NCBI RefSeq assembly: GCF_000026545.1
Contig: NC_011601.1
Source of the DNA: Escherichia coli O127:H6 str. E2348/69
GTDB taxonomy: Bacteria > Pseudomonadota > Gammaproteobacteria > Enterobacterales > Enterobacteriaceae
DNA: 64,000 bases
Direction: 5' to 3' (one strand)
Position numbers and translations under genes: made by a program. The notes under the pieces were generated by a model that did no database searches, was not told the origin of the DNA, and saw nothing but the letters and a program-made list of their open reading frames with translations. Below, piece by piece: positions 27,700 to 32,076 of this stretch (within the stretch, counting starts at the first letter, position 1; each line of letters begins with the position of its first letter).

Positions 27700-28122
27700 G
27701 TGGCAAAAGTTTTTACACAAGAAGAGCGGGAAAAAATTAAAGGGCAGGTTGTTGAACTCGTACGCCAGAGTGGGCGCGAGACGTTACGACAACTGGAAAC
27801 TAAAACTGGGGCAACAAGATATCTGATGAGCGTTCTGGCCAGAGAGCTGGTTGCCAGTGGCGATGTATACAACTCTGGTTACGGGTTATTCCCGTCTGAA
27901 CAGGCGCGTAAGGACTGGCAAAATGCCCGTAAAAAGCTCTCAAGGGCAAAGCTGAAGAAACCATCTGCGGTTGATCCGGACCTTATCTGGTCATTACCTG
28001 ACGGAGAAATACGTCGCTACGACAGGCGTCAGAACATAATCTGTCGCGAGTGCCGGAAGAGCGAAGCTATGCAGCGCGTACTGGCGTTTTATCAGGGGAA
28101 TTTTGAGGAGGTGGTGCGGTGA
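27700..28122 (+). CDS. hypothetical protein with HTH-like segment and CxxC motif
   Basis: 140 aa; ETLRQLETKTGATRYLMSVLARELVASG; ...ICRECRKSE. Confidence 0.45.
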   Translation: MAKVFTQEEREKIKGQVVELVRQSGRETLRQLETKTGATRYLMSVLARELVASGDVYNSGYGLFPSEQARKDWQNARKKLSRAKLKKPSAVDPDLIWSLPDGEIRRYDRRQNIICRECRKSEAMQRVLAFYQGNFEEVVR

Positions 28123-28365
28123 GTGAATCAAAATGCCAGGTTAATGGCAACAAGATAGAACCATGTGCAGCACTGGCAAAGTCCCTTGAGCGTGATGCTG
28201 AATACACGATGCGAAAAGGTCTGCTGATATACAAAATCTGAAATGAGAGTTTAACTCGCGGTCCTGATTTTGTGATGTTGCGTTCCGGTGAATTTTCTAA
28301 ATTACCAGTTCGGGTTTCATTTTGTCCGTTCTGTGGTGAAAGTCTGAAAACGTGGGAGAACAGAA

Positions 28366-28677
28366 ATGAATGAAATTAAAGAAATACCAGTAGTACGTGA
28401 TGAATATGGCTGCTGGACGCATCCTGAATATGAAAAATTCTGTGACGGTCGGGAATATATTTCAACGGAAGAGTTTAACGCCTGGATGGAGGAAAATAAT
28501 CTTCAATACGTCCTCTGCTTCAGAGATGAAGGATGTGCTGACCTTGATGCGTGTGATGCTGATATTTCTGCATGGGAACCGGAACGACCAGAGGGCAATG
28601 GATGGTTTATTGGTTCAATACATGACACCGAAGATGGCCCGGTTTGTGTATGGCTGAGAAATAAGGTCGAAGCATAA
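28366..28677 (+). CDS. hypothetical acidic Cys-containing small protein
   Basis: 103 aa, ATG start; no recognisable family. Confidence 0.45.
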   Translation: MNEIKEIPVVRDEYGCWTHPEYEKFCDGREYISTEEFNAWMEENNLQYVLCFRDEGCADLDACDADISAWEPERPEGNGWFIGSIHDTEDGPVCVWLRNKVEA

Positions 28678-28797
28678 AGGCTATAAACCGACTAACAACT
28701 AAATACTGAAGATTTAAATCAGAAACGATTTTTATTAAATCCTTAACCGGAGGGATTCCTGCACCCTCAAATCATCAGGAGGCCGCCCGAAAGGGCG

Positions 28798-29331
28798 GTG
28801 GAGATAATAATGGGAATAACTAAAGAACGATTGTTGGAAATAGCAAACCTTAGTGATTGGGCATTAAGTGATGAGAGAATTGTTTCTCCTCATGCTTATG
28901 AGTCAGTTACAAGTATAGAAATAACAACAATGGCTAGAATGCTGCTTGGTTATTTCAAAATAGAAAATAAAAAACAGATGGATAGTAATGTTGATATATG
29001 TGAGATTTTAGACGATTGGGGGGCTTGGGTTGTGGCTGGTAATAGTTCTATTGATTGGCAGGAAATAGCTGATAAATATAAAAATGTTGTTCCTCATGGT
29101 AAAAAATCACGTCGTCAGTGCAGCAATGATGAAGGGCGAATTATTGACATTAGTATCCTTAGGTTAGAAAGATATAAGCAACAAGAATATGAGTTAATTG
29201 TTGCTCATTTCGTGATTGGTTTATCTCTTCGTGCTATTGCAAAGCAACAAGGATGTTCAGATGGAACAATTCGTAAAAGATTGCAAAAAGCCTTAGGTTT
29301 TTTGACTGGATATATAGCAATTACCAGTTAA
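28798..29331 (+). CDS. regulatory protein with sigma-70 region-4-like HTH C-terminus
   Basis: 177 aa; C-terminus ...LSLRAIAKQQGCSDGTIRKRLQKALGFL resembles sigma region 4.2 / antiterminator-type HTH. Confidence 0.5.
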   Translation: MEIIMGITKERLLEIANLSDWALSDERIVSPHAYESVTSIEITTMARMLLGYFKIENKKQMDSNVDICEILDDWGAWVVAGNSSIDWQEIADKYKNVVPHGKKSRRQCSNDEGRIIDISILRLERYKQQEYELIVAHFVIGLSLRAIAKQQGCSDGTIRKRLQKALGFLTGYIAITS

Positions 29332-29969
29332 GAGTCAGCGGTTTTTTTACCAGTGTAATGGTATAAGGATACTCCCATGTGTCTTACATGATATGGAAGC
29401 GCTGTTGCTGGATGCTTTGTGATACTCTTAAAGCGGAGGGGAGAGCCTTCCGCTTCAATTTCTGCGTCCGAAACGGTCGTAGAGAAAAATTCTTTCCATT
29501 CATTGAATTTTACTGCTGATTTGTCAGACTTTATATAAATTAGAATTCCTCCATGATCGTCACGTGACGTACCCGTGCCGTAACGTTCGGTTAGCTGAAT
29601 CCAGCCATTATGAATAGATTTGGGGCCTCTCCATAATTTTGCTTCACCGATCCATTCGAATTTTCCGAATTGATGTTTAACTAATAAATCAACGTGACCG
29701 CCATGTTGAGTATCATGTTCAACATCATAAAACCTACCTTTCAGGAAATTTTTGATCGACGCTGTTAGCTCGTCCTCTCCCCACTTAGCATCTTGATAGA
29801 AGTGTTTGTCATTTTCTAAATTCTGAATAGCGTCGTCTAAATCTTCATAGAGTTGCTTTACAAAAATATTTTTGTCTGCAGCTAATTTTCTTTGAACCAT
29901 TCCCCTAAATTCAGGATCCATTCTAATTAATGATTGAAGGTCTGCAGTACAGATGTTTACATCACTCAT
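29328..29969 (-). CDS. cassette gene C: putative Mrr-like PD-(D/E)xK nuclease (213 aa)
   Basis: Start placed at ATG 29969 (MSDVNICT..., GGAG upstream) rather than track start 30032; motif HGGHVDLLVKHQFGKFEWIGEAKLW resembles the Mrr-cat GxGxhD ... (Q/E)xK signature; 8-nt overlap with gene B. Confidence 0.55.
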   Translation of the reverse strand: MSDVNICTADLQSLIRMDPEFRGMVQRKLAADKNIFVKQLYEDLDDAIQNLENDKHFYQDAKWGEDELTASIKNFLKGRFYDVEHDTQHGGHVDLLVKHQFGKFEWIGEAKLWRGPKSIHNGWIQLTERYGTGTSRDDHGGILIYIKSDKSAVKFNEWKEFFSTTVSDAEIEAEGSPLRFKSITKHPATALPYHVRHMGVSLYHYTGKKTADS

Positions 29970-30390
29970 GCAGACTCTCCAAAAGACTCGAAGGAGTAAA
30001 GTATGGATAAAGATACTGGCTAAAATTATCAACCAATTCGCCAGTTTCTGGATGGTAAAAACTTCCTGTGTCTAAAGCATAGGAAATAAGATCATCTTCA
30101 ACTGGTATTGGTTCTTCCGTTAAATTATCAATGTATTGAAAATGCATATCCAATAGATGTGCTTTATAGCTAGATAAATAATCAGTTGCTTTTATTAGCA
30201 GGATATAGCCATCTTTCGTATCAGTTAGATAGGTTAAACCATTGATAAGGGTTTTGTATGTAAAGTGATTGATATTTTTAGCATCTTTACTAACCAGAAA
30301 AAGAAAAAGATCACGACACACACTGCGAACAGGATCATTAAAATCCTGCTCTATTTGCGTGATAATGTCGTGATATATACTCTTTTTCAT
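29962..30390 (-). CDS. cassette gene B: hypothetical protein (142 aa), no recognisable domain
   Basis: ATG overlaps stop of gene A (ATGA); AT-rich codon usage distinct from neighbours. Confidence 0.55.
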   Translation of the reverse strand: MKKSIYHDIITQIEQDFNDPVRSVCRDLFLFLVSKDAKNINHFTYKTLINGLTYLTDTKDGYILLIKATDYLSSYKAHLLDMHFQYIDNLTEEPIPVEDDLISYALDTGSFYHPETGELVDNFSQYLYPYFTPSSLLESLHE

Positions 30391-31484
30391 TTATGGCCTG
30401 ATGATCTCGCTCTTCTTTTCTCTTCACAGGACTTAACAGAATCCAATATTTTTTCAACAATAAATATAATCGAATCAATGTTGTTACAGTTCTTCGCAAT
30501 TGCTTCATGCAACCTAATTCTAGGATTATCAAGCATTGTCCTTTTTCCTGGTAATATTAACTCTACTGATAAAATATGTGAAGAACTTTGTGGTAAATCC
30601 CAAATTTTTCCCAACTTAAACTTTGTCAATATTGGGCTTGCGGACTCTCCACTATGATGGTAAACATCTTGACGCAAACACTTTTGACTTGGTTTGAGTT
30701 TTAAAGAACTTGTATTGCCATCTGAGGTGATAAAAGATACATGAGAAATTCTGCCATCTACTTTTTCGTAAAGATCTTGTATTGAACCAAATAATTCAAG
30801 AGGATTGTTTAAAATAACGCCAGCTTCTTTTTTTATAAATTTAGCCACAAGGTATTGTTGAGGCTGTGATTCACTTCTTGGAAGGATAGATAAATCAATC
30901 GTAAGAATTAATATTTTTTCTGCAGGCATTAGCATGATGGTATTAAAGCATTGCGTGACTTGGCGTGTTTTGCATTTTATTTCTCCACCATTAGCACGTA
31001 ATTCCATACCCGCATCGCTAAGATGTGTTGGGTCAAGCTCTATCACTTCAGTGTAATACGCTTTGGATAAAAAAACAGCAGTGTCAATTTGTTTATCACG
31101 AATGATATCTTGACGTAGTTCAGCAAAATGCAGCTCAGTATCAGCAACTAACAGCTCCTCTCTGGATAAAGGAATTGGGTATTTTTCTGAGAAGGGGCTA
31201 TTGTCCTTTTTCTGATTTGTGAAAATTGTTTGTAATTTTGCTACGTCTTCATCGGTGATTCTATAAATAGAAAGTAATCGATTCCCGCTAAAAATTAAAC
31301 CTTTCCAGAAATCGTCGATTCTGTCTTTTAGGTCGGGATTATGCTGAACTACACTATTTACACGTTCAATAAAAAGGGGTAATCCTTGGGCCGTTACACC
31401 CAGTGATGAACCAAGAAGCTTACGGGTGTTGCGCCAGCCAAAGCGTGAATTGATGTTTTTTACTGTTTGCTCAAGCATTAACAC
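30387..31484 (-). CDS. cassette gene A: hypothetical protein (365 aa), no recognisable domain
   Basis: First gene of a three-gene minus-strand operon; no Walker or other nucleotide-binding motif seen. Confidence 0.6.
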   Translation of the reverse strand: MLMLEQTVKNINSRFGWRNTRKLLGSSLGVTAQGLPLFIERVNSVVQHNPDLKDRIDDFWKGLIFSGNRLLSIYRITDEDVAKLQTIFTNQKKDNSPFSEKYPIPLSREELLVADTELHFAELRQDIIRDKQIDTAVFLSKAYYTEVIELDPTHLSDAGMELRANGGEIKCKTRQVTQCFNTIMLMPAEKILILTIDLSILPRSESQPQQYLVAKFIKKEAGVILNNPLELFGSIQDLYEKVDGRISHVSFITSDGNTSSLKLKPSQKCLRQDVYHHSGESASPILTKFKLGKIWDLPQSSSHILSVELILPGKRTMLDNPRIRLHEAIAKNCNNIDSIIFIVEKILDSVKSCEEKRRARSSGHK

Positions 31485-31767
31485 TTCCTTAATTTTCCCT
31501 TAACAATTTAGGGTGCTAAACTTTTTTGCGCAGTTTACATAAAAAAATAGTGCGTACGCAAAAACTATCTAACATGATGAGCTTTAACCGGGAAATTTGT
31601 ATATGTTGTGAGCATAAAGTTGGCTGAGAAATCTAAAACGGGTAGAATGACTGCGGGTGCTTGAGGCTATCTGTCTCAGGCATGAACACCAAAAGGCAGA
31701 TAGAGAAAAGCCCCAGTTAACATTACGCGTCCGGCAAGACGCTTAACATTAATCTGAGGCCATATCT

Positions 31768-31980
31768 ATGCTCTACACACGTAGGTTAGCCTCTTACGTG
31801 CCGAAAGGCAAGGAGAAGCAGGCTATGAAGCAGCAAAAGGCGATGTTAATCGCCCTGATCGTCATCTGTTTAACCGTCATAATGACGGCACTGGTAACGA
31901 GGAAAGACCTCTGCGAGGTACGAATCCGAACCGGCCAGACGGAGGTCGCTGTCTTCACAGCTTACGAACCTGAGGAGTAA
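31768..31980 (+). CDS. mok: Mok-like overlapping reading frame of a hok-family type I toxin locus
   Basis: 70-aa frame whose C-terminal 51 codons are hok; arrangement as in hok/sok loci. Confidence 0.45.
   Translation: MLYTRRLASYVPKGKEKQAMKQQKAMLIALIVICLTVIMTALVTRKDLCEVRIRTGQTEVAVFTAYEPEE
31825..31980 (+). CDS. hok: Hok-family type I toxin (HokD/RelF-like, 51 aa)
   Basis: MKQQKAMLIALIVICLTVIMTALVTRKDLCEVRIRTGQTEVAVFTAYEPEE; AGGAG at 31811-31815. Confidence 0.85.
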   Translation: MKQQKAMLIALIVICLTVIMTALVTRKDLCEVRIRTGQTEVAVFTAYEPEE

Positions 31981-32048
31981 GAGACCAGGCGGGGGAGAAT
32001 CCCTCGCCACCTCTGATGTGTCAGGCATCCTCAACGCACCCGCACTTA

Positions 32049-32076
32049 ACCCGCTTCGGCGGGTTTTGTTTTTTCC
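32049..32076 (+). terminator. rho-independent terminator after hok
   Basis: cccgc-ttcg-gcggg followed by ttttgtttttt. Confidence 0.65.

Follow-up and report, generated by a model that had tools for sequence, protein, structure and literature searches.

A second, long-form Q-family antiterminator homolog in an Escherichia coli prophage and a candidate site that it may share with the promoter of a convergent gene cassette

In textbooks, Q proteins are antiterminators that have a single known function, the activation of late genes. The family that includes Q21 and Q933W (PF06530) has a fold related to region 4 of ECF sigma factors (10.1101/651190). Q21 of phage 21 (PDB entries 6P18, 6P19, and 6JNX) possesses this sigma region 4-like fold with an HT[loop]H motif; its DNA target consists of two direct repeats of 8 bp, and its contact with RNA polymerase (RNAP) is made through a C-terminal tail. 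Q933W, the late antiterminator of the Stx2 phage 933W, is a protein of 144 aa with no N-terminal extension, and its gene lies directly upstream of pR'/tR' and stx2; the short RNA made at 933W pR'/tR' is StxS (PMC7547250). According to a review statement, the lambda-type Q binding site is situated at the −35/spacer position (PMC6266700). Biology beyond the switching on of late genes is associated with AntQ, a Q-like antiterminator of the Salmonella prophage Gifsy-1 that occurs with IsrK and whose expression disturbs termination globally and is lethal to the cell (PMC4825925). A different type of precedent is provided by the defense hotspots of P2 and P4 prophages, which are fixed backbone slots holding interchangeable small systems, many of them uncharacterized (PMC9122126, PMC9519451).

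The protein described here is encoded in the nin region of a Rac-like lambdoid prophage of EPEC E2348/69, within a window (the whole stretch of DNA that was analyzed) of 64,000 nt. The plus-strand order of the prophage is a cro-like gene, ydaT, a replication gene, DUF977, and the Q-like gene, which is followed by a three-gene minus-strand cassette, hokD, DUF968, rusA, a PF06323 Q gene, tRNAs, and ISEc13. A RefSeq pseudogene with an internal stop is located at 28119-28373, between DUF977 and a 103-aa ORF upstream of the Q-like gene. The late position is held by the PF06323 protein (33845-34534, plus strand; E 3.5e-91), a canonical late antiterminator Q of a different family, and the Q-like protein is thus the second Q of the prophage. 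When the position typical of its family was tested, the Q-like gene was found not to lie directly upstream of PR', a pause element, a terminator, and late genes. [quoted passage not shown]

The ORF at 28798-29331 (plus strand) is uninterrupted and terminates with TAA at 29329-29331. ATG 28810 is likely the start, rather than GTG 28798, because a GGAG Shine-Dalgarno sequence is found 6 nt upstream of the ATG and the GTG is buried in the 3' arm of a hairpin; the product then has 173 aa, and RefSeq uses the same start for WP_000513135.1. The gene at 28810-29331 is recognized as a long-form member of the Q family by PF06530, phrog_79, a match to Q21 PDB chains, RefSeq, and an AF2 model. The preliminary description had reported that its tail overlaps the convergent gene by 4 nt, which is exactly the case: the stop codons at 29329-29331 (plus strand) and 29330-29328 (minus strand) fall within TTAA at 29328-29331. 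A terminator scan identified no terminator-like site between the Q-like gene and the convergent cassette. The ORF is not a chance frame, given the PF06530 match (E 9.4e-32) and a frame that is intact in homologs of 65-75% identity, and the gene is an intact Q-family paralog under selection.

A GC-rich hairpin (GGCCGCCC-GAAA-GGGCGGT; 28783-28800, plus strand), recognized by sequence and fold, occupies the leader directly 5' of the Shine-Dalgarno sequence and forms the left junction of the insertion module. It is retained 5' of all long-form genes and is present in ∼2,100 E. coli genomes, where unrelated cargo also follows it. This hairpin marks a recombination junction or an RNA element of the slot, with either role being putative. 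The structured leader as a whole is conserved from ∼28700 and ends in the GAAA-loop hairpin. A role as terminator was ruled out, as the hairpin is without a U tract and its fold z-score is only −1.4; an Rfam search of the leader and of the surroundings of the 13-mer described below returned sok only. In E. coli 300709 (locus L113, 807-2734), eight small plus-strand genes (DUF7167, DUF4014, and others) replace the module between the hairpin and hok, and this eight-gene alternative is the content of the hairpin-hok slot in most genomes.

The PF06530 profile matched the protein with 109.9 bits (cutoff 26) over profile positions 3-112 of 118, corresponding to residues 66-175 when counted from the GTG start, and phrog_79 matched with E 1.8e-34. 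By these sequence criteria WP_000513135.1 is a homolog of the Q21/Q933W-family antiterminators, an assignment already known from its RefSeq name, "antiterminator Q family protein." Chains of Q21 in the PDB were matched by sequence (E 6e-4), with the alignment spanning Q21 residues 20-99. The structure was modeled by AF2 using 57 more diverse sequences; a 37-sequence alignment had yielded an unusable model of pLDDT 49.7. The resulting model exhibited a pLDDT of 85 overall and >90 in the Q domain, with low confidence (57-78) in the N-terminal part. The ten best Foldseek matches in the PDB were all Q21 chains (TM 0.46-0.60), followed by sigma factors.

The likeness of the C terminus to sigma-70 region 4 that had been noticed earlier proved to be real. 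Sigma70_r4_2 matched with E 1.7e-5 and 24.8 bits (below its cutoff of 25.7), TIGR02937 matched with 3e-8 (also below cutoff), and the likeness was confirmed by superposition of region 4 of sigmaE (2h27) on the AF2 model, with 1.5 Å over ∼60 residues. A true sigma factor was ruled out, since region 2, which serves core binding and −10 recognition, was undetected and the region 4 models remained below their cutoffs; a sigma-like match to the N-terminal part also was not found. Clear homology to a protein of unrelated function, which would have argued against the original proposal, was looked for and not found.

According to the alignments, the Q domain (28996-29328, plus strand) combines an equivalent of the Q21 torus region with a sigma region 4-like helix-turn-helix (HTH) having the recognition helix CSDGTIRK, in which C149, G152, R155, and K156 are invariant among the aligned homologs. 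Compared to Q933W, the window protein belongs to the same Pfam family, is 37% identical in the Q domain, and possesses the same HTH type (CSD..I.K.L). It differs in being encoded in the nin region, in having a cassette between its gene and the candidate site, and in lacking a pause element and terminator. Among structures, Q21 matched best (TM 0.5-0.6) and shares the torus-region motif WGAW, but the sequence identity is only ∼17-20%; of the Q21 residues lining the RNA-threading torus, Thr54 corresponds to Ser in the window protein and Ser29 to Ala. In contrast to Q21, the window protein has an HTH of the canonical type and carries an extra segment at its N terminus, its candidate site is palindromic, and the C-terminal tail has no equivalent in it. 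Identity is higher, at ∼60%, to the Qs encoded by mEp460, by Stx1a-converting phages, and by Klebsiella phages (62% for the Q of Stx1a phage Stx1_499); for the short forms of mEp460 and the Stx1a phages this figure refers to the Q domain. AntQ resembles the window protein as a prophage Q-like antiterminator; its gene differs in being followed by the isrK short RNA and anrP, with no convergent cassette.

Homologs of the protein fall into two length classes, a common short form of 113-120 aa and a rarer long form of 170-180 aa to which the window protein belongs. The short forms of mEp460, Stx1_499, and many enterobacterial prophages share the recognition helix of the window protein and the same 12-mer (see below), and they too are accompanied by a convergent cassette, sometimes of the same family, F7/F8. 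They differ in their placement at the true late junction, 3' of DUF968 and 5' of holin, lysis, or stx genes, where the 12-mer is part of a complete PR'-pause-terminator unit; these junctions include those of the isolated lambdoid phage mEp460 and of Stx1_499. The long forms are placed between DUF977 and hok, in the nin region. They were detected in 67 of the 5,426 complete E. coli genomes, and also in Salmonella, and were not found in the deposited phage genomes.

The length difference stems from a conserved N-terminal extension of ∼60 residues (residues 1-62; 28810-28995, plus strand), which was delimited by alignment and by a phrog_3323 match to residues 4-67 and is missing from the short forms. 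The extension is almost without relatives, and a similar segment heads an unrelated 193-aa protein (P0224). The opening gene of the slot's alternative cargo was ruled out as the origin of the extension, as it encodes an unrelated 61-aa DUF7167 protein. Across seven long-form lineages, dN/dS was 0.36 in the extension (dS 0.25), 0.21 in the torus-equivalent region (dS 0.5), and 0.18 in the HTH region (dS 1.4). Because dN/dS stays at 0.18-0.36 across the regions, the long-form gene is under purifying selection; its 3' part is far more deeply diverged than its 5' part.

On the far side of the cassette lies a candidate Q-protein site that we identified by conservation, TGCGTACGCAAAA (31551-31563, plus strand), composed of the 10-bp palindrome TGCGTACGCA and an A tract. 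Its core is the 12-mer GCGTACGCAAAA, located in the window at 31552-31563 as the sole exact copy in 64 kb. Among the loci compared, 102 of 105 had exactly one copy, on the Q strand and just past the far end of the cassette; it was missing only in two truncated contigs and 933W. The long-form modules retain the 12-mer together with the preceding T, which completes the perfect palindrome, and these 13 bp are 100% identical in seven module types, compared to an identity of only 34-39% in the 40 nt that flank them on each side.

The site can be understood by reference to the short-form phages (mEp460 and the Stx1a phages), in which the 12-mer is located inside the late promoter PR'. There, it forms the left edge of a block consisting of ctaacGCGTACGCAAAA, ∼11 nt, a TAnnnT hexamer, gtgttaagagtggttacttcgccac, and an intrinsic terminator. 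Its counterpart in 933W, by alignment, is the annotated pR' and tR', with a palindrome that reads ACGATCGT; in 933W, the palindrome and A tract, between −35 and −10, are followed by gataagagtggttac. The 13-bp site is thus homologous to the −35/spacer part of 933W pR'. From the alignment it follows that the cassettes were inserted exactly between Q and the late promoter. The block running from gttaagagtggttac to the terminator is present in all short-form loci and lacking in all long-form loci, where a conserved rightward promoter, pause element, and terminator were looked for and not found. In the latter, a variable 60-210 nt takes the place of the pause/terminator block and is followed by the hok promoter. 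Alone among the long-form types, the window keeps some flanking bases like those of 933W as well as TAACAT (31570-31575, plus strand), which by anchored comparison is a remnant of the rightward PR' −10 (TATCAT in 933W). The invariant site that closes the module is therefore a homolog of the Q-site region in PR'.

The palindrome and the recognition helix change together across three Q subfamilies: CSDGTIRK of the window-protein subfamily goes with GCGTACGC, CSDTCIGK of 933W with the palindrome given above, and KDEKLVRI of Salmonella and Erwinia with GCGG(A/T)CCGC. This sequence covariation supports the palindrome as a putative binding element and is not proof of it.

The right-hand neighbor of the module is a hok/sok locus (31620-32075, plus strand) that comprises a promoter, the sok RNA (Rfam RF01794, E 3e-27), and the hokD coding sequence at 31825-31980 (RefSeq), and that includes a terminator-like site, its intrinsic terminator, at 32048-32065 (plus strand). 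The hok terminator region at 31989-32069 (cttaacccgc..gcgggttttgt) resembles the tR' of short-form and 933W PR' units (cttaaacccgcc..gcgggtttt). From this resemblance hok/sok may have been inserted between the old PR' and tR', with a similarity that is too short to judge. An isrK-like Rfam match to the same segment (E 0.77) was dismissed as noise.

We surveyed the context of Q genes of the window-protein subfamily, long and short, at 103 loci plus the window. A convergent minus-strand cassette of two or three genes follows the Q gene at a distance of −21 to +39 nt at all of them, the sole exception being a truncated contig. The interval from the Q stop codon to the 12-mer holds no fewer than 14 unrelated types of cassette, and one type (182 aa + 308 aa) was found behind long forms as well as short ones. 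A prophage defense hotspot is characterized by flanks that are conserved and by many cargo sets that are unrelated, and this slot has both. PADLOC models were matched by four of the ten cargo proteins tested: PD-Lambda-5_A (4e-24), PDC-M53A (2e-21), RTasMBL (4e-12; the DRT/Lamassu-type MBL protein), and PDC-S33 (1e-12). By sequence, some of the slot cassettes thus resemble known defense systems. The likeness to the P2/P4 hotspots lies in a fixed slot with interchangeable cargo, whereas the Q-PR' slot is unlike them in being situated between a regulator gene and its own target promoter, in holding cargo of one orientation, and in having a cargo promoter that shares bases with the candidate site of the regulator.

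Other cargo in the slot follows recurring patterns. Several loci (L019-L023, L041-L044, L064, and L068) combine a protein resembling nucleoid-associated proteins (NA37/YejK-like) with a large partner that has transmembrane helices at its end, and other pairs join a ∼300-aa protein (DUF6731 and similar) to a small membrane protein; both look like families of two-gene systems absent from PADLOC. In Stx1a phage Stx1_499 (L105, 3495-6555), a three-gene convergent cassette sits between Q and PR'/stx1A.

The cassette of the window consists of three minus-strand genes (29328-31478; ∼363, 142, and 197-234 aa) defined by ORFs, RefSeq coding sequences, phrog_12777, phrog_11490, and phrog_9664. Searches of Pfam and NCBIfam gave no family for it, and PADLOC gave only a weak match to PDC-S54 (E 0.002). 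The last protein contains a D...ExK-like motif (HVDLLVKH...WIGEAKLW) and is also the source of this weak match. The Q-like gene, the convergent cassette, and the 13-bp site together constitute a module of 2.8 kb, AT-rich with 33-40% GC, which moves as a unit with the Q-like gene as its left end. In prophages of Salmonella and Erwinia, members of the same cassette family follow the gene for another Q, one of 122 aa, and in Yersinia the family occurs without any Q and without phage context; Q is thus not obligatory for the biochemistry of the cassette. The family is very common in Salmonella Typhimurium prophages and occurs also in Erwinia and Klebsiella.

Read on the minus strand, the site becomes TTTTGCGTACGC, which contains the −35-like hexamer TTGCGT (31561-31556, minus strand). 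Of 17 independent cassette flanks, 12 had a TAnnnT hexamer at a distance of 17 nt downstream from TTGCGT and two others had one at 18 nt, while any other spacing from 8 to 31 nt was observed in 0-2 of the 17. As the −10 hexamers and the spacers differ in sequence, the spacing reflects constraint, not common descent, and we take it to mean that the cassette's own leftward promoter has its −35 within the site. In the window, the −10-like hexamer of the inferred promoter is TAAACT (31532-31537, minus strand), 18 nt from TTGCGT, which places the predicted start of cassette transcription near 31525, ∼45 nt upstream of ATG 31478. This promoter escaped a generic promoter scan, since only three of the six positions of TTGCGT fit the consensus. 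A properly spaced −10 was absent from two long-form flank types (those of the F31 and F33 cassettes) and from one short-form type, and the 17-nt geometry was not seen where the window cassette family stands behind the different Salmonella Q subfamily. A leftward promoter lying wholly within the conserved flank (TACAAT in the short forms) also was considered and was dropped in favor of a shared −35 with cassette-specific −10s.

The preliminary description had suggested that the protein could be a further regulator of the antiterminator type or a protein that regulates the cassette, and both roles hold at the level of sequence analysis: the protein is of the Q21/Q933W family with a sigma region 4-like fold and stands as a second Q beside the PF06323 protein, and the strictly conserved site overlaps the −35 of the cassette promoter. 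Our leading reading, which we advance tentatively, is that the Q-like protein binds the 13-bp site and regulates the cassette, the probable mode being repression when the prophage is induced. The conserved recognition helix would contact the palindromic site, which overlaps the −35 of the putative leftward promoter of the cassette. Since the pause element and terminator of PR' have been lost in the long-form modules, the main job of the protein would be the coupling of cassette expression to the early rightward operon of the prophage. In the simplest version, switching on of the early operon that contains the Q-like gene would repress the cassette, with the Q-like protein occluding the cassette promoter on prophage induction. 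Head-on transcription across the terminator-less overlap may add to the effect in both directions. The long-form module copies the late-gene junction of related lambdoid phages; there, a convergent cassette occupies precisely the interval from the stop codon of a Q gene (115 aa, same subfamily) to PR'. We infer DNA binding, the direction of regulation, and the biological purpose in this proposal, and the sign of the regulation is a guess. Several observations count against the proposal: the poor consensus fit of TTGCGT and the failure of the promoter scan to flag it, the F31/F33, short-form, and Salmonella flanks that are without the −10 geometry, the purifying selection that still acts on the torus-equivalent region and that would be needless for a plain DNA-binding repressor, and, for a palindromic site, the direct repeats bound by Q21.

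Extending the proposed coupling beyond this prophage, it is possible that the Q-PR' gap is a widespread slot for defense-type cassettes, each with its promoter built into a Q binding site, and that Q would switch the cassette off on entry into lytic growth and thereby make the prophage immune to its own defense cargo. The regulator could, with the same tentative standing, be either the phage's own Q or, as here, a dedicated long-form paralog moved to the early region.

The selection on the torus-equivalent region (dN/dS 0.21), the full PF06530 domain, and the Ser in place of Thr54 speak for the main alternative, a working second antiterminator in a Q cascade, which would load at a PR'-like promoter near 31550-31580 (plus strand). 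In such a cascade, transcription would pass hok/sok and its terminator (32048-32065) and reach DUF968, rusA, and the true late Q, and we consider both the loading and this read-through doubtful. Consistent with the idea, the window keeps a 933W-like aaaaaatagt upstream of the site and TAACAT/catgatgag downstream, a strong intrinsic terminator follows, and short-form relatives, including that of mEp460, must act at a PR' located 1.5-2.5 kb from their own gene. The long-form loci as a set fit it poorly: all module types are without the pause/terminator block, each type has its own sequence to the right of the site, only two of the seven carry a rightward −10-like hexamer at the canonical offset, the rightward −35 in the window is poor (ATAGTG), and the distance from the site to hok varies from ∼80 to 215 nt.

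The steep climb of dS along the gene (0.25, 0.5, and 1.4) is the pattern expected of recombination anchored in the gene, and raises the question of whether the 3' end of Q and the PR' fragment are mere homology arms for cassette swapping, with the chimeric long form being a functionless evolutionary passenger. The rarity of the long form (67 of 5,426 E. coli genomes, and none among deposited phage genomes) and a prophage that is probably defective, with ISEc13 in its late region, are in keeping with such an origin. We nevertheless regard it as unlikely, for the frame is intact with dN/dS of 0.18-0.36 over deep divergence and the 13-nt site is invariant in seven module types within otherwise unalignable DNA.

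The overlap of the site with a weak −35 is typical of activator-dependent promoters, and the H3 helix of Q21 contacts the RNAP dock as sigma region 4 does; a sigma region 4-like protein bound at this −35 might accordingly recruit or replace sigma region 4 and activate the cassette. This activator role appears improbable, as a gene in the repressed early operon would leave the cassette silent in lysogens, a poor fit with defense-like cassettes, and Yersinia has the cassette without any Q. Finally, the effects described for AntQ suggest a toxic or global antiterminator serving as the effector or trigger of the neighboring system, which we consider very improbable because nothing ties toxicity to the window protein, the cassette family works as a unit without Q elsewhere, and the conserved cognate site points to a local target.

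A literature search found no paper on a cargo slot in the Q-PR' gap, and such a paper may exist. As far as this search shows, the long-form variant and its displacement to the early region, the Q-PR' gap as a one-orientation cargo slot, and the bases common to a candidate Q site and the cargo promoter are new. The window contains a Q paralog whose target has lost its pause element and terminator and has kept its DNA site, which appears to be shared with the promoter of a swappable, defense-like cassette. If the proposed coupling to the cassette is true, it would be a simple way to keep defense cargo on in the lysogen and off in lytic growth. The cargo between Q and stx1A in Stx1_499 could influence toxin expression. 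The coupling, if true, also would offer a new place to seek anti-phage systems in lambdoid prophages, including Shiga-toxin phages.
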